From Chloroflexota bacterium (GTDB lineage: Bacteria > Chloroflexota > Dehalococcoidia > JACPQD01), in NCBI GenBank assembly GCA_016190665.1, contig JACPQD010000091.1, positions 27,246 to 91,245 on the forward strand: a DNA stretch of 64,000 nucleotides. The letters run 5' to 3'. Made by a program: the position numbers and the translations under genes. Within the stretch, counting starts at the first letter, position 1, and every line of letters begins with the position of its first letter. This document shows positions 6,799 through 37,408 of the stretch, piece after piece. The notes beneath the pieces are model-generated. The model had not been told where the DNA came from, did no database searches, and saw only the letters and a list, made by a program, of their open reading frames with translations.

Positions 6799-6853
6799 CT
6801 TTGCGCAGCGCCCGCTCACCGAACCAGTTCGCGGCCTAAGGCAAACGAATGAT

Positions 6854-10762: not shown

Positions 10763-13700
10763 TTACGGCCTCACTGTAAACACCACCCCATCGTTGCGGC
10801 CCCAGACCTCGGGGAAGAAGGTTTCGTAGGCCCGCGCCGGCATCACCCTAAATTCGCCAGCCGTCGTCGCTCGCGCCAAGTACACATACTGGTGGACGCC
10901 CTTGGGCAGGAAGGTGGCGAAGAGCGCCACGCGGTTGTCCCTCATCTCCGCCCGCTCGAAGGGATTCACGTAGAACCATCGCCGCGTCTGCCGTGGCTGA
11001 AGCGCCTGTCTGAGCTGGGCCAGCAACTGGCGGTCCGCCTGGCTCGTGGTCTTGAGGGTCGTATCGATGGGTTCGAACCCGGCCGGAAGATAGTCCTCCA
11101 CCACGACGTAGTTCAAGTCCGTGGGCGCCACCACGGTCAGTCTCACCTGGACCAGATCGCCCGCCGTAGCACTGGTAATGGCATTCCCACCGGCGGCCGG
11201 CAGGTACTCGCGGCCTACGCCGATGCCTCTATTGATGGCCTCGACGTTGTCTCCGGGCGGGAAATACCTTAAGGTCTCCGTGTAGTAAAGGCGGCCGGGG
11301 GCATCGGCGGGGGAACGCGCCATTCCTATCCGGTTATCCTCATCAAAGTCTTTGATCTCCAGCGCCAGCCGCTCGGATTGCGTCAGAACGCTGGCATCGA
11401 CCTTCTTCTCCAGACGTACCTGGTCATTCACACGGACCTGGTAGCTGTATTCAGCTTTCAGTTCGCCGCTGACGCCCAGGTAGTCCGCAAGGGCCAGCAG
11501 GCTCCAAGCAGTCTCCTGGGTAGTGGCCCAATGGCCTTCACGACGGGCCACCATGAGCCAGCGCACGGTGCTCTCCACCAGAGGGTTGGTGGGGCTGACG
11601 CGAGAGAGCGCCAGGAGGACGATGGCCGTGGAGCGCGTCGAGCTGTTCATGGTGCGTCGGTCGCCTGGCGGGTCCTCCCAGTGGGTGCCCGTGCTGCTGG
11701 TGACGGCGCTGGTCGTCAGGTCGGACATCAGGGCCTTCAGATGGACGTCATCCTTGTTGGAAGTCAGGGCGAGAATAGCCAGGGCCAGCAGTCCCTTGCC
11801 GTCGTTGCCGAGCTTCGCTCTCTCCTGCGCCAGGGCATTGGTCAGGCCGAGATCGCCCTGTCCCGCCGCCGCCAGCGCATAGAGGACAAAGGCGCGCGTG
11901 TTGGGGTCCAGGGGGCGGGCCACGTCGCGGCCCAGTCCCAGGTAGCTGCGCAAGAAGTCCGTCCCCCGCCTCATGACGCTCTCGTCCACGGGGAAACCAT
12001 CCCGCTTCGCCTCGGCGAGCCCCGCGACGGCGTAAGCGGTGATCTCAGGGTTGCTGCTGACTTCACCGGGGAGGCCGCGAGTGAAGCCAAGATTGACAGG
12101 GGAAGAAGTCCAGGACCAGCCCCCGTCTAGAGCTTGGGCATTGTACAAACGTTGTAGCGAAGAGGTCACCAGACCGGGCAGCTTGTCCTTCAGTCCTTGC
12201 GTATCTGGCAATCCGAGCTGGTTGATGGCTTTCAGGAGCGCTATCCTGGGGAGAAGGCGACTCACCGTAATCGCCGTATCCTCATAGGGATACTCGTCAA
12301 CTTGCCGCAGGCTATAGTTCATCGCCGCGGCCAGCGACGGCGAGAGTTCCAGCGTCAACTCGCCCCGGTCCTTAGGGGCCCAGCCCGGCACCTGGACCCT
12401 TTCCGTCACCGGCTCTTCACCCACTCGCCCCGCGGTGGCCACCACCTCTGGCGTGGAATAGCTGTACACCGGGAGAGTCAGCTCAATGGCGTCGCTCGAG
12501 CTCTCAGACCTGGCCTCGAAGGTTACCACCGCCTTATCGCCAACGGGTACCTTCACTTCCCAAGCCGCCTTGCGCAGTTCGCCGGGTGGAATGCTCAGGA
12601 CCTGCGGCGATGGATCAGCCAGAGTCAGGCCTTGCGCCTTCAGCGTCACCTGAGCCTGCTGCGCCTGGTCGCTGAAGCTGTGGACAGCCGTCTCCAAGCG
12701 AACAGAGTCGCCAACAACGAAAAACCGCGGCGTCACCGGCCGGACGATAAGCGGCTTGCTGGTCACGATCTCATTACTAGCTTCGCCGACCCGGGTGGTC
12801 CGGTCTACCGCTTTAGCCGTCAAACGCCAGGTTGTTAGAGTGTCGGGCAGATCGACCGTAACCGTCGCTCGACCCTGGGCATCCGTGCGTAACGTAGGGT
12901 TCCAGTAGGCTGTGTCCGGAAACAGACGACGTGGATCTTCACCGGGCAGCCCGCCTCCGCCACTCCCCCCTTTTCCGCCCTCCCCTGGTGGGGGAACAGG
13001 CGTCACTTGCAGAAGGCGATCAATCAACAAAGCGTAGGCCGCCGCCGTCTGCACGCCGAGGCCCCTTCTGGCCCAGAAGGCCTGCAAGGGCTTAGGCGCG
13101 CGATCCTCGGCCAGGGTCAGGACCGACTTGTCAACCAGCGCCAGGGAAAGCTCCGCCGGCGCCGGCTGTCCCTTCGCATCCGAGGTAGCGATGGTATAAG
13201 TCTCCTTCTGGCGAGGCTCCGTCTTCCCCTTGTCCGGCCTGATCGAAATATTGATCACCTTCTCATCGCTGACCACCTTGAGCTCCGCATAGCCGAGGCG
13301 GAAGCTGGGAACAGGGTTATCCGCCGTGGCTCCTTTGAAAAGCGCCACAGACACATAAACATTGGGGATGTGGTCGCCGGTGATAGGCACGTCAATAGTA
13401 GTGCTATTGGTGGGGAAGCTCATGACCTCTCGGCTGGCGATGGTTCCGCGCTCCTCAGTAACCAGCCCCAGGCTGTCGTTGAAGGAGGCCGTAACCAGGA
13501 CCCTGGCCGTGTCCCCCGGGGCATACTGGTCCTTGTCGGGGCGAAGCTCGATCCGGTTGTCGTTGGTTACCCTCCAGTCGATGAACTCGGAGCTGCTGAC
13601 CCAGAGATAGGCCGCGCTGCGGATGGCATTCCCAGCGGAATCGCGGGCCTCCGCAACCAGTCGATAGGTGCCGCCCTTGGCGGGAGTGAAGGTCAGCGAC

Positions 13701-16700
13701 CCCTTGCCCTCGGCGCCGGTGGCCAGATCCACAGTCTCCTGCAAGGTATCCTGGGGCACGCTGCGCCAAAGGAAGGAGCCATCTTGCTGCCGCTCCCGCA
13801 CGCTGAGCCAGCGCCTTTGGTAGATGGAGACAGACATCGCGACATCGCCCACCGGTTTGCTCTTTGGGTCTACGGTGAGCAAGTTCACCGCCGCAGGCTC
13901 GCCAGCACGGACCAGATAGCTGGCGGGCCGCATCCCAATGTAAAAGTCTCCCTTATGCACAATTGCTTCCAGGCTGTTGGCCACCTGCTGGCGGTTAGCG
14001 TCTGTGACCGTCGCGTCGATGACGAAGACCTGGCTGATAACATCTGCGCCCACGTCCGCAGGCATGCTGAAGGACATACGCCCTTGAGCATCGGTCTTGC
14101 CCGTCTGCTGCCTCCGCACGCGGAAATCAGGCGGGCGTTGCTGTCCGTAAATCTGGTCGAGATCGTTGAAGCTGTAGTAAGGGGCCTCTGTCGAGCTGAA
14201 GAAGTAGGGGCGTGAAGTCACCTGCCAGCGGACATCGGCGTTAGCTACAGGCTGCCCGAAGAAGTAGCGCGCCTGTAGCTGAGCGGAGATGGCCTGGCCG
14301 TTGACGTACTCAGGCTGGTCCGACGCCAACGTGACCTCGAATTCCGGCTTGCGGTACTCCGCCACCTGGAAGGAGGCGGTGGTCACCGGAGGCACGAAGC
14401 GTCCCGGGAACGCCGGCCTCATCCGTCCATCCGGACCGTACTCCGGCGCCGAGTCCGCCTGCCATACCTGCATATTGTAGAAGCCGATAGCTGCCTCGGG
14501 ACTGAGGTCGAGCTTCCCATCAAGGCTGCCCATATCGTTCGGCTTCACGGTGCGTCGTTCCACCAGCCGTCCTCTGGCATCGGTGATGACGATGACGAAA
14601 GACACATCGGCTGGGGGCAGGGCATAGCGAGCGTCGTTATCCGAACGGACGATAGCCTTATAGAACACCGTCTGCCCGGGGCGGTAGATAGGGCGGTCGG
14701 TATAGGCGTAGCCCGAATAGACTTTGCGCGAGAAGCTGGCCGGAAGCTGGAAGTTGAAAGGCTGGAAGCCCTGAGCCCAGCGATTGGACGCAATGCTGGC
14801 ATCTCCCGGCCTCTCCGCCACCACATAGAGCCGCTCACTGAAACCGTCTGGCGGCCTCTCTGAATCGAACACCGCGACGCCATCGTTGTCGGTCCGGCCC
14901 GAGGTCCGTTTGCTGCCATCATTCTCGTACATGGTGAGCGCCAAGTCGGCCAGAGGCTGGCCGGAAGACATATCCACAGCCCACACCAGGACCTCCTTAT
15001 CCGACCGCTTGAGCATCAGGTGCGTCCTGGTGACCACCAGGGGCATCTGCTCGGGCGTGGGCCGGGAGACCTCCGGGCTGGTGGTCCGAAGCAAGTAGAA
15101 GCCGGGGCCGAGCGGCGTTCCCTCCCCCGTCACCAGCGCCACGTCCTGGACCGCCACCTCGTTCAGCGGAGGATTCGAGATGTCCACTGACCACCGGCGA
15201 ACTGGCGGCAGACCCGCCGGCGCCTGGTCTGGCCTGGCTTCTATCCTCATGAAGGTGTCCAGATCGAGGCCGAGAATCTCGAAGTCGATATGGGACACGT
15301 TGATGGCGCTTATGCGGGCTTTCAGGTCTCCAGAAGCGTCGAAGACTCCCGCGCTGCCGCTCCGCGCGATAGACAAAGACGGCCTGGCCGGCGCCGTCGT
15401 GTAGGTCAACGTAAAGGTCGGCAAAGGCTGGCCGTAGCGGTCTCCAGCCCCAGCGCCGATACTCAGCGTGTAGCCCATGGAGGGTTTCGTCGGGAAATTG
15501 ACGCGCAGTCTCCGGTCCTCGGGCTGGATGCGCGCCGTCCGGTCTAGTGGCCCTCTTGGAACGGTAGACATCCAGAAGAACCGCAGGTCACCCTCGTCCG
15601 GCTTGGGGGAGACGGAAATAGCCTTCTCTACAGACTCGGTATCCATGGGATTGCTGAAGGTGATCTCGGCGCCGAACTGGGTGGCGGCCGTTTCGCCCTG
15701 TCTCGGGTTCGTGGCCTCAATCCCGGGCAGGCCCACCGTCGTGAAGCTCCAGCGGCTGTCATCGGCGATGGCGGCCTCCGGTTTGCCTGAGGCCGCCGCT
15801 CCCTTCGCCAGGCGCACTTCGTACTTGCTGGACAGGGACAGTATCCGGTCCGGAATGAAGACCTGCGTGCGGTCATCGGGCCAGCCGAAAGTGCCCAGGA
15901 CAGGCGCTCCATCGGGTCCCACCAGGGAAAAGCGGGCTTCCGCCGACGCCCTGTCCATAGGCTGGTTGAAGACCACCTTCACCTGGGTGCCCGGATCTAC
16001 AAAAAGGCTGGCGTCAGCCGGGGAACGATCGGAGATAGCGGGAGACACCGTGCTGAAGCTGAAGCTGTAATCGACCTCCAGGGAGCCCCCCAGGGCGTCG
16101 GTCAGCGACCTTGGAACGGTGACAGTGTACCGCGTGGAGGGGGCCAGTCCGTCTGCGGGGCGGAAGACGTAGCTGGTCGAAGTGAGCCACTTGCCTTCAC
16201 CGGCCAGGGGCGGATCGAAGCGAAGCACTTCCCCCCTCGCCGGCTGCTGGAGCAGCGTGAGGGGCGCCACCGGACGGTTGAACTCCACGACTACATGGGC
16301 GTCCGTGCCCACTTCTGTGCTGTCGGGAGCGGGAATGGCGCTGGCAACCTTCAGCTTGCCCTCGGTAGTAAAATTGAAGGCTATGGCCTCCAGTAACCCG
16401 GCCGGCTCGGGGGCGAATCCTACGCTGTAGGTGACGCCCCGGGCATAGCCCGGCCAGCGCGGTTGGAAGACAAGAACCCTGCCGTCCTCCTTCGTTTTCC
16501 ACGCTATGTCGCCGTCCACGGCCGGAGAGAGGGTGAGCGCGCGCTGGATCCTGGCCTGGTCAGGCTGCCCCTTGAAGGCGACCGTCACGGGCGTCATGCG
16601 GCCGACCTCTTCACCCTTGGGCCCTTCTTCCACCACTTCCGGCGGCGCCGCTGGCGGCCGGCTTACCCAGAGAAAAAGACCACCCAGTAACAGCAGCGCC

Positions 16701-16786
16701 AGGGCCGCTGGCGCCAACCAGATCCAGGGCGCCCGCCACATGGAACCTGGACGCTTTAGCCACATGAACAGACCAGATGGGCTCAA
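10763..16786 (-). CDS. Bacterial alpha-2-macroglobulin family protein (MG domains), N-terminal TM anchor, no thioester motif
   Basis: 2007 aa. The N-terminal hydrophobic helix is WIWLAPAALALLLLGGLFLWV. A2M hallmarks are present (..DTAYWNPTLRTDAQGRATV..LPDTLTTWRL.., ..HWATTQETAWSLLAL..). It lies immediately downstream of a PBP1C-type gene. Confidence 0.9.
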   Translation of the reverse strand: MSPSGLFMWLKRPGSMWRAPWIWLAPAALALLLLGGLFLWVSRPPAAPPEVVEEGPKGEEVGRMTPVTVAFKGQPDQARIQRALTLSPAVDGDIAWKTKEDGRVLVFQPRWPGYARGVTYSVGFAPEPAGLLEAIAFNFTTEGKLKVASAIPAPDSTEVGTDAHVVVEFNRPVAPLTLLQQPARGEVLRFDPPLAGEGKWLTSTSYVFRPADGLAPSTRYTVTVPRSLTDALGGSLEVDYSFSFSTVSPAISDRSPADASLFVDPGTQVKVVFNQPMDRASAEARFSLVGPDGAPVLGTFGWPDDRTQVFIPDRILSLSSKYEVRLAKGAAASGKPEAAIADDSRWSFTTVGLPGIEATNPRQGETAATQFGAEITFSNPMDTESVEKAISVSPKPDEGDLRFFWMSTVPRGPLDRTARIQPEDRRLRVNFPTKPSMGYTLSIGAGAGDRYGQPLPTFTLTYTTAPARPSLSIARSGSAGVFDASGDLKARISAINVSHIDFEILGLDLDTFMRIEARPDQAPAGLPPVRRWSVDISNPPLNEVAVQDVALVTGEGTPLGPGFYLLRTTSPEVSRPTPEQMPLVVTRTHLMLKRSDKEVLVWAVDMSSGQPLADLALTMYENDGSKRTSGRTDNDGVAVFDSERPPDGFSERLYVVAERPGDASIASNRWAQGFQPFNFQLPASFSRKVYSGYAYTDRPIYRPGQTVFYKAIVRSDNDARYALPPADVSFVIVITDARGRLVERRTVKPNDMGSLDGKLDLSPEAAIGFYNMQVWQADSAPEYGPDGRMRPAFPGRFVPPVTTASFQVAEYRKPEFEVTLASDQPEYVNGQAISAQLQARYFFGQPVANADVRWQVTSRPYFFSSTEAPYYSFNDLDQIYGQQRPPDFRVRRQQTGKTDAQGRMSFSMPADVGADVISQVFVIDATVTDANRQQVANSLEAIVHKGDFYIGMRPASYLVRAGEPAAVNLLTVDPKSKPVGDVAMSVSIYQRRWLSVRERQQDGSFLWRSVPQDTLQETVDLATGAEGKGSLTFTPAKGGTYRLVAEARDSAGNAIRSAAYLWVSSSEFIDWRVTNDNRIELRPDKDQYAPGDTARVLVTASFNDSLGLVTEERGTIASREVMSFPTNSTTIDVPITGDHIPNVYVSVALFKGATADNPVPSFRLGYAELKVVSDEKVINISIRPDKGKTEPRQKETYTIATSDAKGQPAPAELSLALVDKSVLTLAEDRAPKPLQAFWARRGLGVQTAAAYALLIDRLLQVTPVPPPGEGGKGGSGGGGLPGEDPRRLFPDTAYWNPTLRTDAQGRATVTVDLPDTLTTWRLTAKAVDRTTRVGEASNEIVTSKPLIVRPVTPRFFVVGDSVRLETAVHSFSDQAQQAQVTLKAQGLTLADPSPQVLSIPPGELRKAAWEVKVPVGDKAVVTFEARSESSSDAIELTLPVYSYSTPEVVATAGRVGEEPVTERVQVPGWAPKDRGELTLELSPSLAAAMNYSLRQVDEYPYEDTAITVSRLLPRIALLKAINQLGLPDTQGLKDKLPGLVTSSLQRLYNAQALDGGWSWTSSPVNLGFTRGLPGEVSSNPEITAYAVAGLAEAKRDGFPVDESVMRRGTDFLRSYLGLGRDVARPLDPNTRAFVLYALAAAGQGDLGLTNALAQERAKLGNDGKGLLALAILALTSNKDDVHLKALMSDLTTSAVTSSTGTHWEDPPGDRRTMNSSTRSTAIVLLALSRVSPTNPLVESTVRWLMVARREGHWATTQETAWSLLALADYLGVSGELKAEYSYQVRVNDQVRLEKKVDASVLTQSERLALEIKDFDEDNRIGMARSPADAPGRLYYTETLRYFPPGDNVEAINRGIGVGREYLPAAGGNAITSATAGDLVQVRLTVVAPTDLNYVVVEDYLPAGFEPIDTTLKTTSQADRQLLAQLRQALQPRQTRRWFYVNPFERAEMRDNRVALFATFLPKGVHQYVYLARATTAGEFRVMPARAYETFFPEVWGRNDGVVFTVRP

Positions 16787-16804
16787 TTCACGTTCCCCCG
16801 TATA

Positions 16805-19237
16805 TCAACGCATCACCATCACGCGCACCACTTTGCTCTCCACCCTGCGCCCCGTCCTATCGTAGGCCACCGCGCGGAAACGGTGCTCCCCCGGCGAGAG
16901 GCGCCAAGCGGCGCTGAAGGGGGCTTCTCGCCGCACGGCCAACAGGTCGCCGTCCGCGTATATCTCTATCCTCTCCGGGTCGCCCCCAGCCACCGCCTCC
17001 ACGATCACCCGCTGAGAATCGAGCGGTATCTCTCGGCTGACCGCCAGTTGCATCTCCGGGCCAGGGCTGACCAGTGATACCCAGAAGCCGACATCGGCGC
17101 GATCATTATGGTCTACGGCTGCGCTGTACTCGACCAGCGGCGGCAGCGGGAGGCCGGCGGCCCTGGCCCAGGGAATAGCCTCTTCGGGCACGAAGGTGTA
17201 AACCCTCTCCGGGTCTCGCGGGGCCGTCCCGCCATCGCGGACGGGCAACGGCCGGTAGTAGGTCTCTGTGCCGGCAGGCTCCGTGCCTGCGATGAAGAGC
17301 TCCATGCGCCTCTCCGGGCACCAGTCGCCCGGCTTGAGCCCGGTAGGCTCACAGATCTCCGCCTCTACCAGGCCCGGCGGCCGGGCGAATTCCTTCGGAG
17401 CATTCGTCTTGAGTACTTCCTCCATGAAGTCATGCCACAGGGGCGCGGCGCCGCTTATCCCCGATACCTGGCGCATGGCGCTGTTGTCTGCATTTCCCAT
17501 CCAGACGCCCACCGCGATATCGGGCGTATAGCCCACGGTCCAGTTATCGCGGAAATCGCCGGTGGTGCCCGTCTTGCCGGAGGCCGGGCGGCTCAAGCGC
17601 AGGGGACTGTTCAGACCGAAAGCAGGAGCGCGGGCGTTGTTGTCCGCCAGCATATCGGTGATGAGATAGGCGACCTGCGGGCTAACTACTCGGCGGCCCG
17701 GCCCTCCCTGCCAGCGATGGAGCGTGCGGCCTTGGGCATCTTCCACGCGCAAGACGGGACTGCTTTCCCTCCTTTCGCCACCAGCGGCGAAGGCCGCGTA
17801 AGCGCCCGTCAGTTCCAGCAGAGACACTTCGCCGCCCCCAAGGGTTACGCTCAAATCGTAGCGATCCGCGTCGCCCAGTGTAGTGATTCCCAGATCCGAA
17901 GCCAGCCTCAAGAACGCATCCACGCCGACATCCTGCATCACCCGTACCGCGGGCACATTGAAGGAGGACCCCAGCGCGTAGCGCAAGGATACCGGGCCGC
18001 GGAAGATGGCGTCATAGTTGTTCGGGACATAAGGCTGGTTGCGCCTGGTAAGAAGAGTGGTAGGCACATCCAGGAGAGGCGTGGCTGCGGAATATCCCTT
18101 GCTCAGAGCCAGGGCATAGGTGATGGGCTTCACGGCCGACCCCGGCTGCCGAGGAGCGGTGGCCATATTGACTGCCCCATCGATGGACGCGTCGAAATAA
18201 TCGGGACTGCCCACCATAGCCAGCACTTGGCCCGTGGCGACGTCTAAAGCCACCAGAGCGGCATTTGAGGCGTCGTTCTCCCTCAGGTTCGAAAGGTGCC
18301 GCACGAGCATGTTCTCAGCCGTTATCTGCATATCCAGGTCCAGCGTCGTGTAGACGCGAAGGCCGCCTTGGGCCATAGCCTCGGACCCCAGCTTCTCCTC
18401 CAACCATTGCCGCACGTAGGCCACGAAATGGGGCGCCCGGATGGGAAAGGGGGCCTTGCCTAGCTGCACCGGCTCTTCCCGAGCTGCTTTCGCCTCCACC
18501 TCATCGATGTAGCCTGCCTTCTTCATGAGCGAGAGAACGGTGGCCTGGCGCTCCTTCGCCGCCTCCAAGTGGCTGAATAGGTCGTAGCGGCTGGGAGCCT
18601 GAGGAAGCCCGGCCAGAAGGGACGCCTCGGCGAGGTCAAGGTCCTGCGCCGATTTACCGAAATAGGTCCTGGCGGCCGCCTCTACCCCGTAGGCCAGATT
18701 GCCATAGTAGACGCGGTTCAGGTACAGCTCCAGAATCCTGTCTTTTTCGAGCTCCCGAGCCAGACGGAAGGCCAGCACTGTTTCCCGAAGCTTCCGCAGC
18801 AGACTTCTGGAGGAGCGCTCCTGAGGCGTGAAGTACAGGCTGCGAACGAGCTGCTGCGTAATGGTGCTGCCCCCGCTGACCACCTCTCCACCGCGAAGGT
18901 TCTGGAGCAGCGCCCGGCCCAGGGCGAACACATCCACCCCTGGATTCTGGTAGAAGGAAGAGTCCTCGGTGGCAATCGTGGCCTGCTTCAGAAAAGACGA
19001 GATATCGGACAGGGCGAGGCCCGTATGGCTGCCCTCATCGGAAACGGGGACCTCGTACAGAAGACGGCCATTGCGGTCGAAGACCTTGGCGCTCTCCAGC
19101 GAGGGCGCCGCCTCTGGTAACCCGGCGCTCGCAAATAAGAAGAACGTCGCGCCCAGCAACAGGATGCCCACAGCGATAAAGCCAGCTTTCAGCGCCAAAC
19201 GCATACTTATACTATCGGAATCCGGTCTTCCCCACAT
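16805..19237 (-). CDS. pbpC: Bifunctional class A penicillin-binding protein, PBP1C-like (GT51 transglycosylase + transpeptidase + C-terminal PBP1C-type domain)
   Basis: 810 aa. GT51 motifs are ATIATEDSSFYQNPGVD and RKLRETVLAFRLARE. The transpeptidase SxxK is PGSAVKP. A TM anchor sits at the N-terminus. It is in an operon with the alpha-2-macroglobulin gene (18-nt gap). Confidence 0.88.
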   Translation of the reverse strand: MWGRPDSDSISMRLALKAGFIAVGILLLGATFFLFASAGLPEAAPSLESAKVFDRNGRLLYEVPVSDEGSHTGLALSDISSFLKQATIATEDSSFYQNPGVDVFALGRALLQNLRGGEVVSGGSTITQQLVRSLYFTPQERSSRSLLRKLRETVLAFRLARELEKDRILELYLNRVYYGNLAYGVEAAARTYFGKSAQDLDLAEASLLAGLPQAPSRYDLFSHLEAAKERQATVLSLMKKAGYIDEVEAKAAREEPVQLGKAPFPIRAPHFVAYVRQWLEEKLGSEAMAQGGLRVYTTLDLDMQITAENMLVRHLSNLRENDASNAALVALDVATGQVLAMVGSPDYFDASIDGAVNMATAPRQPGSAVKPITYALALSKGYSAATPLLDVPTTLLTRRNQPYVPNNYDAIFRGPVSLRYALGSSFNVPAVRVMQDVGVDAFLRLASDLGITTLGDADRYDLSVTLGGGEVSLLELTGAYAAFAAGGERRESSPVLRVEDAQGRTLHRWQGGPGRRVVSPQVAYLITDMLADNNARAPAFGLNSPLRLSRPASGKTGTTGDFRDNWTVGYTPDIAVGVWMGNADNSAMRQVSGISGAAPLWHDFMEEVLKTNAPKEFARPPGLVEAEICEPTGLKPGDWCPERRMELFIAGTEPAGTETYYRPLPVRDGGTAPRDPERVYTFVPEEAIPWARAAGLPLPPLVEYSAAVDHNDRADVGFWVSLVSPGPEMQLAVSREIPLDSQRVIVEAVAGGDPERIEIYADGDLLAVRREAPFSAAWRLSPGEHRFRAVAYDRTGRRVESKVVRVMVMR

Positions 19238-19297: not shown

Positions 19298-19744
19298 TCA
19301 ACTTGTCTCCACCGTCGCCTCCACGCTGAGAGCTACATTCCCTTTCAGGGCCTGGGAGACGGGGCAGCCGTCCTTGGCCGCCTCAGCGGCTACTCGGAAA
19401 CCCTCGGCATCAAGTCCGGGCACCCAGCCTCTCACCTTCAGCGCGCTCGAGACAACGCGCCAGTTGCCATCGACCCTGTCGAAGGTGACGGCGGCGCTAA
19501 CCTCCAGCTTCCTGGGCGCCTTCCCTTCCTGGCTCAGCCCATGCGCCAGAGCCATAGAGTAACAACTGGCGTGGGCTGCGGCGATGAGCTCCTCCGGGCT
19601 GGTGCGCCCATCTGGGGACTCCGTCCGCGAGGCCCAGGTCACGGGCAATTTCTGGAACGCCTGGCTTGAGCTGGCGGTTACCACGCCGGAGCCGGAGACA
19701 AGGCCACCTTCCCAACTGACATCCGCACGTCTGACTGCAGCCAT
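19298..19744 (-). CDS. osmC: OsmC-family peroxiredoxin
   Basis: ..SPEELIAAAHASCYSMALAHGL.. is the OsmC signature. The start is placed at ATG 19744, which has ggagg 6 nt upstream (the ORF track starts at 19777). Confidence 0.85.
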   Translation of the reverse strand: MAAVRRADVSWEGGLVSGSGVVTASSSQAFQKLPVTWASRTESPDGRTSPEELIAAAHASCYSMALAHGLSQEGKAPRKLEVSAAVTFDRVDGNWRVVSSALKVRGWVPGLDAEGFRVAAEAAKDGCPVSQALKGNVALSVEATVETS

Positions 19745-19899: not shown

Positions 19900-20036
19900 C
19901 GGTATCTAAACGACCTATTTTCGTAGCAATCCCCATAGACCCATTATACTATTCCCAGCATGACATGACTCTGAGGGTGGCATGCTTCCTCTACTGAGCA
20001 TTTTGGAGTATAGTGTAATTACTGGAGGAATCCACA

Positions 20037-20606
20037 TTGGGGAAGAATGCGGGCATCTTGTTTCTGGCTCTTGGCGTCGGTGTGCTCACTATCGTTTCCG
20101 CTAACGGGTGCAGCCCCTTCGCAGGCGCGCCGCAGAAGCCGGCAACGTCGGTTCAGCCCCCAGCGGCAGAGACCCCTCAGGGGCTCGTTGGCAAGCCAGC
20201 GCCTCTCTTCTCACTGCCGACGCTGGCGGGAGAAGCCATCAGCCTGCACAGCTTGCGGGGGAAACCGCTGTTCCTGGTTTTTGGCGCCTCCTGGTGACCG
20301 TACTGCCGTCAGGAGCTGGCAGCTCTTGAGAACATCTGGAAAGAGTCAGACCGGTTCGCCATTGTGCTCGTCGATATCAAGGAGAGCAAGGAGACAGTGG
20401 CCCGGGCCATCAACCAGGCCGGCTTGACCTTTCCCGTCCTTCTGGATTCCAATGGGGCTGTGGCGGCGTCCTATAGAGTCAAAGGCATACCGGCCAATTT
20501 CCTCGTCGACAGAGAAGGCGTCGTCAGAGACTACTCCGGCGGTTTCGCCAGCGAGGAAGCTCTTCGGGCGAAGTTGACCGCCTTCGGAGCGCGCTTCGGC
20601 CCCTAG
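20037..20606 (+). CDS. TlpA/ResA-like thiol:disulfide oxidoreductase, probable selenoprotein (UxxC active site; in-frame TGA at 20295-20297)
   Basis: ORFs 20037..20297 and 20364..20606 share one frame. Reading through the TGA gives ...[26 protein letters not shown]...[33 protein letters not shown], a complete TlpA-type fold with TGA exactly at the first Cys of WCxxC. TTG start with ggagga 7 nt upstream. The N-terminus has a signal/lipoprotein-like segment. Confidence 0.75.
20309..20329 (+). promoter_or_regulatory. Candidate bacterial SECIS hairpin
   Basis: tcaggagc / loop tggca / gctcttga forms an 8-bp stem (one G-U) beginning 11 nt after the TGA. The loop contains GG. The position matches the known bacterial SECIS geometry. 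Confidence 0.5.
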
Positions 20607-21518
20607 TACGGTGTAACATTGATTAATCCGAGGGTGGAGCGAAGCGTGACTCACCACCGCCGATTGGATCTGTCGGGTGCAGTCCCGATTTTCCCGACGC
20701 ATCAGGGACTCCCAGAAAGCCCAAGCATCGGGGCTGCACCCACCCTACGGCTGGCTTCATCCGAAACTACAAGTGTTACATCGTACTTGGAGCACTGGCT
20801 TCGCACCCGAGGATGGGCGAACCCGGTAGGACAGCCTTTCCAGACTGTCGGGTGTGGACGGGCAGGAATGCCTATCCAACCACCTGAGAATGGGCGAACA
20901 CATCCTTTGCAGCCAGCCGCTGCCGGAAAGCCTCACATCACGTCTTGTCACCCATCCCGTCTCTCTCCATCTATAGCCTCCTTCAACCTCACAGCATATA
21001 GGTCCCGATATTTCAGCACACACTGAACCCACCCTGGTGCAACACGCCCGTTCTCTTTATCCTCCGCAAATAAATGTCGATAATATGACTTAGTGAACAA
21101 CGTAACACGGATTGGAAAGGAGAAAGCCTATAGGCCAAGCTCCACCGACAAGAGCAAATCCAGCGAAAGTTGGAGACGCAAAGCTACGGGCCTGTGGTTC
21201 GGGATGGACTAGGGCGGCTGGGGCGGAGGAACAGAACTAAGGCAGCCGGGTTGCCGAAAGAAGCAGCCGTGACAACCAGACAAGCCATTCAATGATATCT
21301 TACTGAAGATTACGTCCGTGGCTCGCAAAGGACAGGGAGCAGCGGGCGTTTGCTTTTTTCGAAAGAGCGACCAGGCTGGCAGGCCCGCAGCGCCGGGGGA
21401 GAGGCAGAAAGGAGGGGATGGCAACCGAAGCAAAGAAACGACCACACTCAGTAGCAGGATAAGTCAGACGCAACCCTGGACAAACTCAAGACGGAAAAAA
21501 TCAAGGAGGTTCATCGAA

Positions 21519-21695
21519 ATGGAATACATCACAAGGTTCTGGAAAGAGGAAGAGGCCATCGAGACTATGGAGTTCGCCCTTATCGCTGGCCTGGTGGCGA
21601 TCGCAGCCATAGCCGGGGCAACCACGCTCGGCACCAACCTTCAAACTTGGTTCGCTGGCATAGCCACCACTGTAGGCACGCTGCCGACATCGTAG
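21519..21695 (+). CDS. flp: Flp-family type IVb pilin
   Basis: 58 aa. MEYITRFWKEEEAIETMEFALIAGLVAIAAIAGA has the Flp leader plus the xxxxEF/hydrophobic motif. SD aaggagg lies 9 nt upstream. Confidence 0.85.
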   Translation: MEYITRFWKEEEAIETMEFALIAGLVAIAAIAGATTLGTNLQTWFAGIATTVGTLPTS

Positions 21696-21763: not shown

Positions 21764-21982
21764 ATGTCACCAGGTGCGGGAGCCTCGAGAGAAGGGATAA
21801 GGGAACTGAAAGCAACGACTGCGTTCTGGAAAGACGAAGAAGCCTTCGAGTCCATGGAGTTCGCCGTTATCGGCAGTTTGTTCGCGCTGGCAGTGATAGC
21901 GGGGATGACCGCGCTGAGAGACAACCTCCAAATCTGGTTCCAGAATATGTCGACAACCATCGGCGCCATACCCACGTCCTAG
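21764..21982 (+). CDS. flp: Flp-family pilin, second copy (start uncertain)
   Basis: ...AFWKDEEAFESMEFAVIGSLFALAVIAGMTAL is paralogous to the first Flp. ATG 21764 has no SD. Alignment with Flp1 suggests a shorter leader, possibly starting near 21806. Confidence 0.7.
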   Translation: MSPGAGASREGIRELKATTAFWKDEEAFESMEFAVIGSLFALAVIAGMTALRDNLQIWFQNMSTTIGAIPTS

Positions 21983-22064: not shown

Positions 22065-22628
22065 ATGATTCCTGAACTGGCCATGCATCTCATCAATAGC
22101 GCTCTCGTCGCCCTGGTATTCGGCGCCTTGTACACCGACGTTAGGTCGCGCCGAATACCGAACTGGCAGACGGTGCCGGCGATCGGGATCGGCATCGCCT
22201 TGAACGCTGTCTACGCCGGTCAGGCTGGCATCCTTTCCAGCCTGACCGGAGGGCTGATCGGCGCCGCCCTGCTTCTCCTCCCCTACCTGCTAGGAGGCAT
22301 GGGCGCCGGAGATGTCAAGCTTCTAATGGCCATTGGCGCTCTCAAGGGGTCGCCTTTCATTTTGTGGACCGGCGGCTACGCCGCCCTGATCGGCGGCCTC
22401 ATGGCGATCGCAATCGTGATCAAGAGAAAGAGCGTCCTTCCATTACTTCGCTACCTTCTTAACCCGCTATTGGGTTCCGGCGTGGCCGCGTACGTTCCGC
22501 CAGCCTTGACCGCGCGGATATCTCTCCAAACGGCGGAGAGGCCGGAAAGCCTTTCGGTGCGCCTGCCCTACGGTGTGGCCATCGGGTTGGGAACGCTGGG
22601 CGCGCTATATCTCCAGTATCTGCATTAG
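22065..22628 (+). CDS. cpaA: A24-family prepilin peptidase (CpaA/TadV)
   Basis: 187 aa, polytopic. It has ..YTDVRSRRIPN.. and ..GGMGAGDVKLLMAIGA.., the two catalytic Asp motifs. Confidence 0.9.
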   Translation: MIPELAMHLINSALVALVFGALYTDVRSRRIPNWQTVPAIGIGIALNAVYAGQAGILSSLTGGLIGAALLLLPYLLGGMGAGDVKLLMAIGALKGSPFILWTGGYAALIGGLMAIAIVIKRKSVLPLLRYLLNPLLGSGVAAYVPPALTARISLQTAERPESLSVRLPYGVAIGLGTLGALYLQYLH

Positions 22629-22636
22629 CAGCAGGC

Positions 22637-23119
22637 GTGGAGGTGGCAGCGGTGAAATTCATCGGATCTATTTCAAACCATCGCGGCGCCAGGAGCGAGG
22701 ACGGGTCGGGTGTGGTGGAGTTCGCCCTGGTGGGGATGATCCTCGTGCTGCTGGTTTCCGGGGTGTGGGACTTCGGCCGCCTCTTCAATGCCTGGCTGGT
22801 CACCACTAACGCCGCGCGCGAGGGCGCGAGGTACGCGGCCGTATTCGGCGCCGACCGCAACATGACGGAGAGCGACGTGGTCAATCAGGTGAAGCAAAAG
22901 ACCTTGGAATACCTTGACGCTGGCCTCGCCGCCCGGGGAGACGTGCAGCCTTACGCGGCCAGCGACGTAATCGTTCAGTTCCCTGCCGGTCGTTCCATTG
23001 GAGAAAGAGTAAAAGTAACCGTCTCGCTTCGAGTAGCTGTCTGGCCCCTGGCCAGAGACCTCTTTTTCGGCGGGTCCGACTCGGCGGCGATACAGGGTGC
23101 GGCTTCGATGCGCATTTAG
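22637..23119 (+). CDS. tadE: TadE-like pseudopilin
   Basis: GSGVVEFALVGMILVLLVSGVWDFGRLFNAWLVTTNAAREGARYAAV is the TadE N-terminal signature. Confidence 0.8.
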   Translation: MEVAAVKFIGSISNHRGARSEDGSGVVEFALVGMILVLLVSGVWDFGRLFNAWLVTTNAAREGARYAAVFGADRNMTESDVVNQVKQKTLEYLDAGLAARGDVQPYAASDVIVQFPAGRSIGERVKVTVSLRVAVWPLARDLFFGGSDSAAIQGAASMRI

Positions 23120-23140
23120 GCTGGGTGGGGAGGCGGCCTC

Positions 23141-23551
23141 GTGGTACGCAAAGTAAAGTCCGTGGATGGAGCCGGCACCGTAGAGTTCGCCCTTGTTGGC
23201 CTTCTTCTGTTCATGCTGATGCAAGGCGTAATGGAAGGCGGCCGGGTCTTCGGCGGCTGGCTTGTTATCACCAATGAGGCTCGCGAGGCGGCTCGCTGGG
23301 GAGCGGTCAGAGTCGGCGATCCGGCATATCCGAGCTTCTCTTCCCTGGAGACCGCCGTCCGGGACCAGATCATCAGCAGAACCGAAGGTCTAATCAGTCA
23401 CGATCCAGCCGTTTTCTCGGTAGTCAGCACCGCGAACGACACTGCCGTTACCGTTCGCATAGACTACATTGTGGATATGATCTCTCCCTTGATGGCCAGC
23501 ATTTGGCCCAGCTTCCAGCTATCGGCAGAATCGGTGATGCGCTCAGAATGA
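23141..23551 (+). CDS. TadE/TadF-like pseudopilin, second copy
   Basis: GAGTVEFALVGLLLFMLMQGVMEGGRVFGGWLVITNEAREAARWGAV. Confidence 0.8.
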   Translation: MVRKVKSVDGAGTVEFALVGLLLFMLMQGVMEGGRVFGGWLVITNEAREAARWGAVRVGDPAYPSFSSLETAVRDQIISRTEGLISHDPAVFSVVSTANDTAVTVRIDYIVDMISPLMASIWPSFQLSAESVMRSE

Positions 23552-23561
23552 GGAGTGAACG

Positions 23562-24599
23562 GTGTTCTGGTTCTACGAGAGAGCCCGCGCTTTTTGCCGG
23601 AACGACGAGGCAGTTGTGGTCGTGGGCGTCGCTATCTCGTCTGTGGCTCTCGTGGGTTTTCTCGCGCTAACCGTCGACCTCGGAGCAATCTATGAGGTCC
23701 GTCACCAGCTTCAAACCGGCGCCGACGGAGCTGCTCTCGCTGGGGCCTGGGAGCTGCCAAACAACCTTGCTGCCGCCGCCAGCAAGGCTCAAGAGTACGC
23801 CGGCCATAACGGGATTTCCTCTGGCGAGATCACGATTACTATCCAGAGCATCTTGAACCCGAACGATGGCATTCAAGTGAGAACAGTGCGGAACGTGGAC
23901 CTCGTCTTTGGGCGGGTGCTGAACTTGAATGCTGTCGCGGTGGAAGCTAGCGCCACGGCCATCGCGGTTCAGCTTCAACCCAAGGCGCTCTGGCCAATCC
24001 TTCTGCCAGTCAGCGATGCGGGAAGCGCCTACACGGTACTGTCCATGGGACCGCCCGGCAGTGAGTGGGTCCCAGGGACCGTAAGGGCAACCGACTATCC
24101 TCCCCCGGGGGGTACGGAGGACTACGTATACGATTTCACCTACGGTTGGGATGATACGACAGGGGCAATGCCAGTTTACAGCCCACCGGACCCTTATTCC
24201 TGGTGGATCGATCTTAAGCCGGGGAATATGGTCAACGCGACGCAGGACGCCCTGAACAGCGTCCTGGCAAACAGCGCCGCATACGACCCCCCATCCTGTC
24301 TTTTGGCTGACCCTTACAGCTTCAACCCTGACAACCCGCCGGTCGGCTTCATTCCGAGCATTGCGTGCTATCGTATCCGATATTTCCCGCTGGTCTCCGA
24401 TGCGTCGTGGGACGCAGCCAAAGGCAGGAGTCAACCGGTGGAGATCACAGGATTCGTTCCTACCTACCTCATCGGCTATGACGGTTCGGGGGCGACGATT
24501 AACATTCACCTTGTCTTCTTGCGTGAGGCCCGAGCCATGGGCAGGGCCATAGTGGGAGCTCCGTTGAACGGACTCCTCGGCGCCCGTTTGTGGCGCTAA
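23562..24599 (+). CDS. tadG: TadG-like pilus assembly protein
   Basis: VVVVGVAISSVALVGFLALTVDLGAIYEVRHQLQTGADGAALAGAWEL is the TadG N-terminal domain signature. Confidence 0.75.
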   Translation: MFWFYERARAFCRNDEAVVVVGVAISSVALVGFLALTVDLGAIYEVRHQLQTGADGAALAGAWELPNNLAAAASKAQEYAGHNGISSGEITITIQSILNPNDGIQVRTVRNVDLVFGRVLNLNAVAVEASATAIAVQLQPKALWPILLPVSDAGSAYTVLSMGPPGSEWVPGTVRATDYPPPGGTEDYVYDFTYGWDDTTGAMPVYSPPDPYSWWIDLKPGNMVNATQDALNSVLANSAAYDPPSCLLADPYSFNPDNPPVGFIPSIACYRIRYFPLVSDASWDAAKGRSQPVEITGFVPTYLIGYDGSGATINIHLVFLREARAMGRAIVGAPLNGLLGARLWR

Positions 24600-24637
24600 G
24601 CGACTCCTAGAAAGAGCCACATTGTTGTTGGGGTGGG

Positions 24638-25693
24638 GTGGGGGCTGAGGTGGTAAGCAACATAGTCAAGAGGATGTTCGCCTGGCGAAAGGACGAGAGA
24701 GGTGTTGTGGTGCTCACCGTGGCCCTTTCGTCGGTGGGGCTGATGGGATTCGTTGCCATGGCTGTGGACGTGGGAATGATCTACGAGACGCGCCGCCAAC
24801 TTCAAGTCGGGCTGGATGGGGCCGCCCTGGCGGGAGCGTGGGAGCTTCCCTCTGATCCAGCCAACGCCGTGGCAAAGGGCAGCGAGTACGCAGCCTACAA
24901 CGGGATTCCGAGCACCGAGATTACGGCCAGGACGATAATGACCATCTTCAATCCCAACGACGCCCTTCAGTTCACGGCCCGGCGCCGCGTGGACCTGACC
25001 TTCGCGCGGATTCTAGGGCTCGATGTGGCGGACGTGGATGCCAGCGCTACCGCCATCGTCGCCCAGGTGCCGCCCGTAGGCGTCTGGCCCTGGGGCGTGC
25101 CCGCAAGCCAGGCCGACGAGGGCTACGTTGTGCTCAAGTATGGCGCCATAGGCGATAGGGGCGGACCGGGCAACTTCGGCCCCCTGAACTTGCCGCCCGG
25201 CGAGGGCGCCACGAGCTATCTGAGCTACATCCGGAACGGATGGGACGATCCTGGAGGCGCGATGCCGCCTTACGCCCCACCTAATCCGTATTCCTGGTGG
25301 GTTGACCCGCAAACAGGCAACATGGTGGGGCCGACGAGAGTGGGCGTGGACTACTTGCTGGATATGAGCGTGCAGTATGATAAGCCAGCCTGGATTCTGG
25401 CCGACCCTGACAACTACGACCCGGACAATCCGCCCGCCGGGTTCAAGCCGCATATCGACGGCTACCGGATCGGGCTTATACCCCTTATCTCCGATGCTTC
25501 ATGGGACGCCGCCACAGGGAAGAGCAGACCTGTGGAGATCACCGGTTTCGCTGCCTTCTATCTTGACGGCCGCTTCGATCAAGGCGGACATATGTACGTC
25601 ACCGGCGTTTTCCTGGCGAATGCCAAAGGCTTCGGAAAGGCGCTCATAGGAGCGCCCCTGGAGGGGCTCATTGGCGCTCGCCTCTGGAGATGA
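24638..25693 (+). CDS. tadG: TadG-like pilus assembly protein, paralogue
   Basis: GVVVLTVALSSVGLMGFVAMAVDVGMIYETRRQLQVGLDGAALAGAWEL. It is collinear with the previous gene to the C-terminus (...GAPLEGLIGARLWR vs ...GAPLNGLLGARLWR). The start may be ATG 24674. Confidence 0.75.
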   Translation: MGAEVVSNIVKRMFAWRKDERGVVVLTVALSSVGLMGFVAMAVDVGMIYETRRQLQVGLDGAALAGAWELPSDPANAVAKGSEYAAYNGIPSTEITARTIMTIFNPNDALQFTARRRVDLTFARILGLDVADVDASATAIVAQVPPVGVWPWGVPASQADEGYVVLKYGAIGDRGGPGNFGPLNLPPGEGATSYLSYIRNGWDDPGGAMPPYAPPNPYSWWVDPQTGNMVGPTRVGVDYLLDMSVQYDKPAWILADPDNYDPDNPPAGFKPHIDGYRIGLIPLISDASWDAATGKSRPVEITGFAAFYLDGRFDQGGHMYVTGVFLANAKGFGKALIGAPLEGLIGARLWR

Positions 25694-25751
25694 ACCAGTC
25701 GGCTAAACCCGACAAGTCGGGACCAGCCAATATACAGAAGGGAACCAGATA

Positions 25752-27146
25752 GTGGGAGCCATACGACGCAGAAAAGCTTTGATTCTGGCGCTCATGTTGG
25801 GCCTGGTAGCTGCCCTAGTATCCTATCAGTATGTGCAACAGAAGGCGGCGCTGCCGCCCCCGCCCGTTGAGATGACGCGAGTGGTAGTCGCCGCGGCTGA
25901 CATCCCCTCGCGGACCAAGTTGTCCAAGACCATGCTCAAGCTGGAAGAGATGCCCCTGTCGGCAAAACACCCGGATGCCCTGACGTCCTTGACCGAGGCT
26001 GAAGGCAAAGTCACCCGGCTGCCCATAACGGCCGGCGAGCAGGTGCTGTCCAAAAAGTTTTCCCTGGAACGGGCCGAATCGGGTCTGGCCTTCATGCTCG
26101 CCCCGTCGAAGCGAGCCGTCGCCATTAAGGTCAACGAAGTGACGGGGACCGGCGGCTTAATCCTGCCTGGAGACCACGTTGACGTTATCGCCGTCTTCGA
26201 TGCCAAGACTTTTGGAAAGGACTCAGCCTTGTTCGTGCTGCAGGACATCGAGGTACTCGCCGTGGCGCAAACAATCGAGGGGGTGGCGGACACGAGCACG
26301 ATCATCGAGAGGGGAAGTGGAATGGTGGGCCTCACACCGTCAAGACCAGCGACGAGCAGACCCAAGCCGCAGCCGGAGGCCAAATCCATCACCGTGGCCG
26401 TGGACCCTGAACAGGCTCAACGTCTGGTGCTGGCCGAGGAACGCGGTAAGCTGCGCATAGTCTTGCGACCCTACAAGGACACGAGACAGGTTGAGCTGGG
26501 CCAGGCCACTCTGGGAAACATACAGGCGCCTTTGAAGCAGGGGCAGGCGCGCATTACTTCTGTCTCCATCTCCCCGACAGAGCTCAGGATAGGCGACACG
26601 ATGAAGGTCGAGATCACCGTAAAGAACACGTCCACTGTCGACATCAGAAGTCAGGGGCCGGGACCGGGATTCACCTATATACAAGGGCAGACCTTCTATT
26701 CTCAGGCCTACCCATCGCAGGCAGGCGCCTACCGGGTGGGCCTCAACTTCGCCGGACAGGCGCCGGTGGAGTTCCCCTACCGGTGGGGATTCGGAGGGAG
26801 CTTGCCGGCCGGCTCAAGTGTCACTGTGGTTGGGCACGTCAGATTCCTGAATGAGTTCAAACTGACCAACTTCTGGGCGGGCCTCGTCCTTGAGCCCGCT
26901 GAAATAGTTGAGGACAGCGTGGGCATGACGCCTGTGGTGGTGATGGCGGCCAACGGCAGCGTGGTGATAGTCGACAACGCCCAGGTCAGGAGCGCGCCGT
27001 CCATCGGCTCAAGCGTAGTCGAGTCCCTCCCCTTTGGGACCGAGCTAACCGTCCTGAGCAAGGAAGCGGACTGGTACAGAATAGCTATCCCTGGTACTGA
27101 CCGACAGGGGTATGTGGCGGCGGCCTGGATATCTGGCCCGCGCTGA
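25752..27146 (+). CDS. cpaB: CpaB/RcpC pilus assembly protein with long C-terminal extension ending in an SH3b-like domain
   Basis: N-terminal TM plus a SAF/CpaB region (VVVAAADIPSRTKLSKTMLKLEEMP...). An extra ~200 aa ends VRSAPSIGSSVVESLPFGTELTVLSKEADWYRIAIPGTDRQGYVAAAWI, which looks like bacterial SH3. Confidence 0.82.
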   Translation: MGAIRRRKALILALMLGLVAALVSYQYVQQKAALPPPPVEMTRVVVAAADIPSRTKLSKTMLKLEEMPLSAKHPDALTSLTEAEGKVTRLPITAGEQVLSKKFSLERAESGLAFMLAPSKRAVAIKVNEVTGTGGLILPGDHVDVIAVFDAKTFGKDSALFVLQDIEVLAVAQTIEGVADTSTIIERGSGMVGLTPSRPATSRPKPQPEAKSITVAVDPEQAQRLVLAEERGKLRIVLRPYKDTRQVELGQATLGNIQAPLKQGQARITSVSISPTELRIGDTMKVEITVKNTSTVDIRSQGPGPGFTYIQGQTFYSQAYPSQAGAYRVGLNFAGQAPVEFPYRWGFGGSLPAGSSVTVVGHVRFLNEFKLTNFWAGLVLEPAEIVEDSVGMTPVVVMAANGSVVIVDNAQVRSAPSIGSSVVESLPFGTELTVLSKEADWYRIAIPGTDRQGYVAAAWISGPR

Positions 27147-27157
27147 GGCAGGTTACC

Positions 27158-28348
27158 ATGAAAGAGCGCATTAAGCTATTGATCGCGGACGACCGGGAGA
27201 AGGAGCGGGCTGCTTTGCGGAAGCTGCTCGCCGCCAGCGCGATAGACGTTATTATCGTCGGCGAAACCGGGGTGGGCACGGAAACGCTGACCGCGGCCGA
27301 AGACGTGGCGCCCCATGTCATCCTGTTGAGCCTGGAGGAGCCTCTGGCCCGTCCGCTACGCATTCTCGAGTCTCTCGCCCTCACCGGCACAGCCCCGATC
27401 ATCGCGCTATCATCGATCGGCGAACGCGACTGCTTGCGCAAAGCGATGCGAGCTGGAGCCAAGGAATACCTGGTGAGGCCACTGAACGCCGAGGACCTGG
27501 CGACCGCCATCGAGAGCATTTACGCGGCGGAACAGCATAGAAAATCTCTGCTCTCCAGCGGCTCCACCGTCAGCGCTCGAGCCCAGGGGGAGGTGATCAC
27601 CGTTTTCAGCGCTAAGGGCGGCACGGGCAAGACTACCCTTGCTGCTAACCTGGCGGTCGCCCTTGCTCTGGAAACGGAGCGACGCGTAGCGCTCCTCGAC
27701 CTCAACCTGGAACAAGGCGACGTTCCCCTCATGTTGGACGTCGTTCCCGAGAAGACTGTCCTCGACCTCGTCCAAATCATCGATCGCGTTGAATCGGACA
27801 TGATTGAGGGGTTTCTCTGCATGCATAGCTCCGGCGTGAAGGTACTGGCCGCTCCCAACGAAATGAAAGCTGGAGAGTTGATAAACAGCCAGCATGTCAG
27901 GAAAATCATCATGCTGCTAGCCAAACTCTTTGACTATGTGGTGATCGATACGCCGCCGAATCTCAGCGCCACGGTGCTGGCCGCCTTTGAACTGTCCAAC
28001 GAGATCTTTCTCATCACCACGCCGCAGATCACCTGCCTGAAGAACTCCAGGATCGTGCTGGAGTTGTTGAAATCCCAGCATCCCTATGGCAGCAAGGTAA
28101 AGATTGTAGTGAACGACGCCTACATGCCGGACGGTATCTCGCATGCCGAGGTGGGCAGGGCGCTGGACTACCCGATTTTCTGGAAAATACCCTATGACAC
28201 CCTTGTCGTCGAATCCATTAAGGTGGGAGAACCCTTCGTACTGGCGAAGTCGGCAGGCAAGGTCTCCCGTAATGTGTCCGATCTAGCGAGGATTCTCGGT
28301 GGAGTACAGAAACAGCGCAAGAAATTGCTCGGAATATTCGGAAAGTAG
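27158..28348 (+). CDS. tadZ: TadZ/CpaE-type ParA/MinD ATPase with N-terminal receiver-like domain
   Basis: The IKLLIADDREKERAALRKLL receiver-like N-terminus is followed by VITVFSAKGGTGKTTLAANLAVALA, a deviant Walker A. Confidence 0.85.
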   Translation: MKERIKLLIADDREKERAALRKLLAASAIDVIIVGETGVGTETLTAAEDVAPHVILLSLEEPLARPLRILESLALTGTAPIIALSSIGERDCLRKAMRAGAKEYLVRPLNAEDLATAIESIYAAEQHRKSLLSSGSTVSARAQGEVITVFSAKGGTGKTTLAANLAVALALETERRVALLDLNLEQGDVPLMLDVVPEKTVLDLVQIIDRVESDMIEGFLCMHSSGVKVLAAPNEMKAGELINSQHVRKIIMLLAKLFDYVVIDTPPNLSATVLAAFELSNEIFLITTPQITCLKNSRIVLELLKSQHPYGSKVKIVVNDAYMPDGISHAEVGRALDYPIFWKIPYDTLVVESIKVGEPFVLAKSAGKVSRNVSDLARILGGVQKQRKKLLGIFGK

Positions 28349-28378
28349 TCAGGCGCCGCTGGAAAGAAGGGAACGGCT

Positions 28379-30708: not shown

Positions 30709-30714
30709 ATTCCA

Positions 30715-31635: not shown

Positions 31636-31656
31636 CCCGGTGCGGCGCCGCTGGAC

Positions 31657-35808: not shown

Positions 35809-36036
35809 ATGGAAGTGAAGTTCTCTCGTCACGCTAAGAGAAGGGCAAACCTGTACGCGATTCCAGAATCAAGGATCGTGGAGATTCTGGAAGGGACTTC
35901 ACTAGCTCAGGGAACCCAGGCGATCCTGGCCAACGTTGAGGGCTTTGCATACCCGTTGAAGATCGTGGTCGCAAGGGAAGATGATATAATAACCGTGATA
36001 TCAAGCTATCCTCTGAAACGCGGAGGAAAGAAATGA
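35809..36036 (+). CDS. DUF4258-family putative toxin
   Basis: MEVKFSRHAKRRANLYAIPESRIVEIL... shows the typical DUF4258 start (F..HA..R). It overlaps the next gene by 4 nt. Confidence 0.7.
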   Translation: MEVKFSRHAKRRANLYAIPESRIVEILEGTSLAQGTQAILANVEGFAYPLKIVVAREDDIITVISSYPLKRGGKK

Positions 36037-36260: not shown

Positions 36261-36318
36261 CGATTCGTTTCTGGAGAGGTATGGTTCTCGCCCCCTCCAG
36301 TCCTCGAGTTCCCGCCGC

Positions 36319-37054: not shown

Positions 37055-37069
37055 GAAAAGGAAGAGAGC

Positions 37070-37303: not shown

Positions 37304-37408
37304 CCCGCGAGCACGGCATGAATTGGCTGGTGAGCCCCTATTATCCGAATAGCGGTGGAACGGTGATAGACTGGATGCCGCCAGAATGGGACGAGGACTA
37401 AGACGTGC

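Follow-up and report, generated by a model that had tools for sequence, protein, structure and literature searches.

Positions 20037-20606 on the forward strand of the DNA analysed here, a 64-kb stretch that we call the window, very likely form one gene for a selenoprotein of the TlpA/ResA family, in which U-P-Y-C takes the place of C-P-Y-C and the UGA codon is read as selenocysteine (Sec). This conclusion is drawn from sequence analysis. The region is a single frame of 189 codons, and its sole interruption is the TGA at 20295-20297, around which the peptide reads ...FLVFGASW[TGA]PYCRQE... An earlier note on this DNA had described two same-frame ORFs parted only by this TGA, and the frame was confirmed. 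The features of the locus are listed in Table 1.

Table 1. Features of the putative selenoprotein gene and of its two deposited fragments, with positions in the window.
Feature	Positions	Strand	Basis or remark
Shine-Dalgarno sequence GGAGG	20024..20028	+	8 nt before TTG 20037; read from sequence
Complete CDS, TlpA/ResA-like thiol:disulfide oxidoreductase	20037..20606	+	TTG start; TAG stop 20604-20606; one proposed Sec codon among 189
Hydrophobic N-terminal signal/anchor with lipobox-like SANGC end (Cys25)	20037..20111	+	translation
Deposited protein MBI2909608.1, 'redoxin domain-containing protein', 86 aa; very probably an annotation artefact	20037..20297	+	exact look-up; ends at the TGA
In-frame TGA, proposed Sec codon (U87), first position of the UPYC redox motif	20295..20297	+	homologue alignment
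Resolving Cys90 of UPYC (TGC)	20304..20306	+	invariant alignment column
Proposed bacterial SECIS hairpin, loop GGC at 20318-20320	20309..20329	+	9-bp stem; UGA-loop 20 nt; -11.6 kcal/mol
Deposited protein MBI2909609.1, 'TlpA family protein disulfide reductase', 96 aa; very probably an annotation artefact	20316..20606	+	exact look-up; CTG start
Cis-proline codon P152 (in GIPANF) of the thioredoxin fold	20490..20492	+	nearly invariant alignment column

In the public record, the locus is annotated as two proteins, MBI2909608.1 and MBI2909609.1, which belong to the series deposited for the source contig (MBI2909596 to MBI2909649). The earlier note was thus right in stating that ORF callers divide this gene. 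Both fragments are contained in the protein collection that was searched, yet the first homology search did not list them. Therefore, absence from that search is no evidence. If the annotation were right, the locus would encode two separate small proteins, or termination at the UGA would yield a functional 86-aa product. We regard this as highly improbable, as each half makes up only part of a thioredoxin fold. The N-terminal half stops just short of the redox motif, and the C-terminal half starts past it, at a CTG codon and without CxxC. The sequence AGGAG abuts this CTG with zero spacing, and the C-terminal half is thus without a spaced ribosome-binding site. Furthermore, all homologues are single proteins that cover both halves.

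The domain composition was analysed by Pfam with Cys substituted for the TGA. The AhpC-TSA, Redoxin and Thioredoxin_8 models cover residues 51-169 and so extend over both sides of the TGA (E 2e-25). AhpC-TSA (PF00578) itself matches residues 51-165 with an E-value of 2.1e-25, and Thioredoxin_2 (PF13098) also matches (E 7e-12). That the downstream ORF carries the rest of the TlpA fold, as had been suggested, agrees with these matches across the TGA and with the retention of the cis-proline P152 and of E93. The hallmarks of the TlpA/ResA family were all found, namely a thioredoxin fold, the W-C-x-x-C position where helix 1 begins and a cis-Pro that is conserved. Among the NCBIfam models, the ResA subfamily ranked first, followed by StoA, DsbE and TlpA. 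The scores for ResA (NF002854; 90.1 bits vs a cut-off of 170), DsbE (TIGR00385; 64.4 bits vs 123) and TlpA (NF047696; 35.4 bits vs 230) were below the cut-offs, and the StoA cut-off was likewise not reached. Membership in the ResA, DsbE or TlpA equivalog or subfamily was rejected on these cut-offs. Thus, the window protein is a generic family member. The nearest PDB structures are 3hdc, a thioredoxin-family protein of Geobacter (E 6e-21), and ResA entries, with E-values ranging from 6e-21 to 1e-19.

The lipobox-like SANGC sequence at the end of the N-terminal segment is non-canonical, with Asn at position -2. Two relatives described below, L061 and L069, have a similar signal plus Cys at the N-terminus. 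From its N-terminus, the window protein is predicted to be exported and extracytoplasmic, and it is probably lipid-anchored.

All 54 Cys homologues, which are genes from reference genomes, have the first Cys of W-C-x-x-C opposite the TGA. Since the scan pattern for these homologues contained Cys, Sec forms were outside its reach and could not appear among the 54. The protein alignment gave the same answer. Thus, the placement of the TGA at the first Cys of WCxxC, as the earlier note had it, holds, and the alignment with Cys homologues that it proposed as a check confirmed the U/C correspondence. When Sec and Cys forms were aligned together, W86, C90 and E93 showed no variation and P152 almost none. 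E93, a Glu three residues past the second Cys, is conserved in the window protein; we take it to correspond to the conserved Glu that ResA-type proteins carry three residues past the second Cys. The locus therefore shows what marks a selenoprotein gene, an in-frame UGA opposite Cys with coding sequence conserved on both flanks. Among the 74 TGA-joined ORF pairs in the window, a redox motif together with coding sense on both sides was found only here.

TGA is the stop codon of 4 of the 18 Pfam-verified genes in the window. Thus, the genetic code is standard, and there is no genome-wide reassignment. Termination at UGA is leaky when C follows. This context, which is present here, speaks for decoding of the UGA as one of the standard amino acids Trp, Cys or Arg, either by a near-cognate tRNA or under a reassigned code. 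We consider such decoding to have very little probability. The use of TGA as a stop in verified genes argues against a reassigned code, and read-through by near-cognate tRNAs has a low efficiency and would, in most cases, leave the catalytic site with a residue that is not catalytic. In addition, the selected hairpin downstream of the TGA, described next, would be left unexplained.

The proposed SECIS hairpin has the 5′ arm UCAGGAGCU (20309-20317) and the 3′ arm AGCUCUUGA (20321-20329). Its nine pairs comprise eight Watson-Crick pairs and one G-U pair, and the stem begins 11 nt past the TGA. An 8-bp stem-loop with a GG-containing loop had been described at this distance; the distance and the GG loop were correct, whereas the length was not, as the stem has nine pairs. 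The consensus for bacterial SECIS elements (bSECIS) requires a loop of 3-9 nt with G within the first two loop positions, an upper stem of 4-16 bp, a UGA-loop distance of 16-37 nt and a free energy of -7.5 kcal/mol or lower (PMC13188914, a 2026 review). With a 3-nt loop that starts with G, a stem of 9 bp, a distance of 20 nt and -11.6 kcal/mol, the hairpin 20309-20329 lies within all of these published limits, in agreement with the bacterial SECIS geometry claimed previously.

As background, the bSECIS model is passed by 9% of window positions, and -11.6 kcal/mol is reached by 2.1%. We also performed a codon control, in which the peptide was kept fixed and synonymous codons were resampled by the window's own usage (n = 3000). 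The free energy of -11.6 kcal/mol was reached by 0 of 3000 resamples (p <=0.001), and -7.5 kcal/mol was reached by about 1%. The arms contain rare codons, namely CGT (8% of Arg), GCA and GCT (7% and 16% of Ala, respectively) and CTT (11% of Leu). The codon resampling is the strongest single evidence of selection on the RNA structure itself. The fold of the 76-nt region around the TGA was no better than that of shuffles (z = 0.09); the hairpin 20309-20329 alone stands out, not the whole 76-nt region. Bacterial SECIS elements are poorly represented in Rfam-type models. When positions 20250-20400 were scanned permissively against Rfam (E up to 10), no SECIS family was detected, and two chance lncRNA matches appeared.

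The same hairpin analysis, in which only ungapped stems were scored, was performed for Cys and Sec forms. At the equivalent site, 2 of 54 Cys homologues passed the bSECIS model (2 of 16 at GC >=0.55). Six of seven Sec forms passed it, a count that includes the window gene and does not include L069. A codon-resampling p-value of 0.05 or less was obtained for 5 of 8 Sec forms vs 2 of 54 Cys forms. One Cys homologue, L038 (match 3001-3408; ...ISHW-C-PYCRQEV), possesses a 10-bp hairpin with the loop GGAGG (-16.4 kcal/mol) 14 nt past the Cys codon. This hairpin may be a fossil SECIS left after a Sec-to-Cys conversion, or it may have arisen by chance.

Relatives with an in-frame TGA were detected in a metagenome scan with the pattern TGG TGA CCN TAY TGY MGN CAR GA. 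Of the 12 matches, nine are TlpA/redoxin-like and encode a thioredoxin fold that continues past the in-frame TGA. These nine represent six independent lineages (L050/L054/L060, L051, L055, L056/L059, L057 and L061). A further TGA form, L069 (...RGKPVFLNFWASW-TGA-PYCRNE...), was found via the short match P0321. L069 is the closest relative found, with 48% identity to the window protein over 159 aa; no relative with more than 50% identity was detected among 1.84 billion cluster representatives when the C-terminal half was used as the query. The perfect-stem hairpin of L069 is weak when ungapped stems are scored (-5.1 kcal/mol, codon-resampling p 0.5). Another match, P0431, was rejected as a split gene; it has Cys in its motif (WCGPC), and its start had been called wrongly.

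L069 carries a second thioredoxin-like gene split by TGA (...LLDFFNPN-U-RGCQMMD...) at 6851-7447 on the reverse strand, 2 kb away. Its 7-bp hairpin with the loop GUUA is located 24 nt downstream (-10.4 kcal/mol). This gene is probably another unannotated selenoprotein.

The locus could instead be a recent pseudogene, in which a nonsense mutation converted the catalytic Cys codon from TGC or TGT to TGA and the hairpin is coincidental. One base change is enough for this conversion, no Sec machinery was seen in the window, and there is no close relative (none above 50% identity) to display conservation of the TGA. Nevertheless, we judge this explanation improbable. The mutation must have struck this one of 189 codons in a frame without a second lesion. 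It must also coincide with a hairpin that is matched by about 2% of positions, is built of rare codons and was equalled by 0 of 3000 synonymous recodings. We estimate the joint chance of the catalytic codon, the hairpin and the otherwise intact frame at roughly 1e-4. Moreover, the in-frame TGA recurs in independent relatives, namely the six scan lineages and L069.

A sequencing or assembly error was considered as well. In this case, the true codon would be TGC or TGT, and the product would be an ordinary CPYC TlpA-family protein. The gene is flanked by breaks at about 19906 and 20756 in the Logan contigs (SRR12113390 and SRR12113401), and neither gene half is on record among the called genes of those Logan assemblies. 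The contigs end on either side and leave the TGA unconfirmed, and local variation or low coverage could underlie this. The breaks could be caused by coverage, by strain variation or by the hairpin downstream of the gene; the break at 20756 lies inside that long hairpin, which is itself a possible cause. Base errors in the consensus of Illumina MAGs are rare, and an error would not yield a SECIS-like hairpin of rare codons at the correct distance. An error at the TGA is thus very unlikely, and the reading of the locus as a selenoprotein gene is retained.

For Sec decoding, selA, selB, selD and tRNA-Sec are necessary in the genome. None of the four was found in the 64-kb window, where there are no tRNAs of any kind. 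The Pfam scan for SelA, SelB and SelD took in 30 of the approximately 56 longest non-overlapping window ORFs, and it gave 0 matches among those 30. As for the taxon, Chloroflexi were named as Sec users already in 2006 (PMC1794560), and some Dehalococcoidia possess 46-49 selenoproteins (PMC13326102). The taxon is no argument against Sec use. The nearest homologues of the PBP1C and methylmalonyl-CoA mutase of the window come from Chloroflexota and Dehalococcoidia MAGs.

In bacteria, it is established that SelB binds to the apex of the hairpin as the ribosome meets the UGA. We propose that the GG-containing apical loop of the hairpin inside the CDS would recruit SelB together with GTP and Sec-tRNA(Sec). 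Sec would then be placed at UGA 20295-20297, and the ribosome would run on to the TAG at 20604. The SelB-recruiting geometry of the hairpin is the ground on which Sec insertion and continued translation are proposed, and we infer that Sec is actually inserted at this codon. In the protein, the selenolate of U87 would attack substrate disulfides, and C90 would resolve the mixed selenenylsulfide. Re-reduction would rely on a CcdA/DsbD-type electron shuttle in the membrane. A redox partner of this type and a disulfide substrate are thus presumed. A CcdA/DsbD-type partner is absent from the 64-kb window, and neither cytochrome c maturation genes nor CcdA were found nearby. The only suggestive neighbour is a divergent gene for an OsmC peroxiredoxin at 19298-19744 on the reverse strand. 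In the relatives compared through PBP1C, the neighbours differ and the OsmC-TlpA pair is absent.

The window gene was compared with known selenoproteins and TlpA-type proteins. The Prx-like thiol:disulfide oxidoreductase family was reportedly first described in a 2004 analysis of prokaryotic selenoproteomes. These selenoproteins (PF00578, UxxC/UxxU) are given in Table 1 of PMC13188914 and PMC1794560. The family and the recurrent Cys-to-Sec conversions in thiol oxidoreductases were treated in the 2005 and 2006 surveys (PMC1088965, PMC1794560). As defined in Table 1 of PMC13188914 and in PMC1088965, the family takes in the window gene, which has PF00578 and UxxC (U-P-Y-C), not the TxxU of peroxiredoxins. 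Both share an AhpC-TSA/Redoxin-type thioredoxin fold, Sec in place of the first Cys of CxxC, a SECIS (proposed in the window gene) inside the CDS right after the UGA and a recurrent Cys-to-Sec origin. The reference members (e.g., WP_010940744.1) are from Geobacter and other Deltaproteobacteria, and the likeness to them is one of description. Unlike these members, the window gene comes from sparsely sampled Chloroflexota and has no relative above 50% identity. That Sec replaces Cys in redox sites was already called well established in the earlier note; this is in accord with the literature, in which UxxC selenoproteins with a thioredoxin fold are long known (PMC13188914, PMC1794560).

Among Cys forms, the TlpA/ResA/DsbE(CcmG) proteins (PDB 3hdc, 4nmu, 1st9 and 3c71) give the best PDB and NCBIfam matches. 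They share with the window protein the W-C-x-x-C site, the Glu three past the second Cys and the cis-Pro. The membrane or lipid anchor at their N-terminus has a predicted counterpart in the window protein. They differ in that Sec replaces the nucleophilic Cys in the window protein, and its scores remain below the cut-offs. The UGC-containing TlpA selenoprotein (ResA-like WAxxUGC, NF041054) also combines a TlpA-family thioredoxin fold with Sec. Membership in NF041054 was rejected, as the score was 47.7 bits vs a cut-off of 300, the motif is WAxxUGC vs GASW-U-PYC, and the model is 354 aa long. The thiol:disulfide interchange selenoprotein family (PF13098, UxxC) resembles the window gene product in UxxC and in being a thioredoxin-like protein that is exported, as is predicted for the window protein. 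However, PF13098 matches the window protein more weakly than PF00578 and PF08534.

Several other elements were observed in the window. A long imperfect hairpin extends over approximately 190 nt from the gene's stop codon (20598-20795, forward strand), with an MFE of -85 kcal/mol and z of -5.4 vs shuffles. This 198-nt element occurs once in the window and in none of the fetched loci, it has no Rfam match, and a Logan contig starts inside it, at 20756. A repeat or MITE explanation for the flanks was rejected because the element is single-copy and absent from the fetched loci. For the hairpin itself, a terminator-like element, the remnant of a MITE and a structured RNA are conceivable. Further downstream, a c-di-GMP-I riboswitch (21143-21258, forward strand; 73.6 bits, E 1.5e-12) is the only Rfam match in the window at the gathering threshold. 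It is followed by Flp pilin genes (at 21519-21695 and at 21764-21982) and by a tad/cpa pilus locus that is complete (22065-33447). This arrangement suggests that c-di-GMP controls the expression of Flp pili in the source MAG. On the reverse strand, 10763-19237 contains a bacterial alpha-2-macroglobulin (about 2000 aa) and PBP1C pair, and this pairing is kept in the related Chloroflexota contigs L047, L064 and L066. A lower-GC stretch at 36000-54000 is mobile- or defence-like; it carries VapBC, BrnTA, a DUF4411 and IrrE-like pair, an Eco57I/MmeI-type methylase (47238-49208) and an SNF2 helicase with a PLD domain (50902-53925).

What is known of Sec recoding and of TlpA-family function is unchanged by the finding. 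The public record is corrected in that MBI2909608.1 and MBI2909609.1 are very probably one selenoprotein. The gene would add a Chloroflexota member to the known UxxC thiol:disulfide oxidoreductase selenoproteins, and it would imply that this groundwater Chloroflexota lineage, whose machinery was looked for in the 64-kb window only, decodes Sec. TlpA-like W-U-P-Y-C forms recur in about eight environmental lineages. We suggest, tentatively and with more doubt than confidence, that the window gene and L069 belong to an as yet unnamed clade of TlpA selenoproteins with W-U-P-Y-C, which would be exported, bear a lipobox and occur in groundwater bacteria resembling Chloroflexota. Such a clade, together with the second TGA-split gene near L069, would point to an extracytoplasmic selenoproteome in these bacteria that is systematically fragmented by current annotation pipelines.
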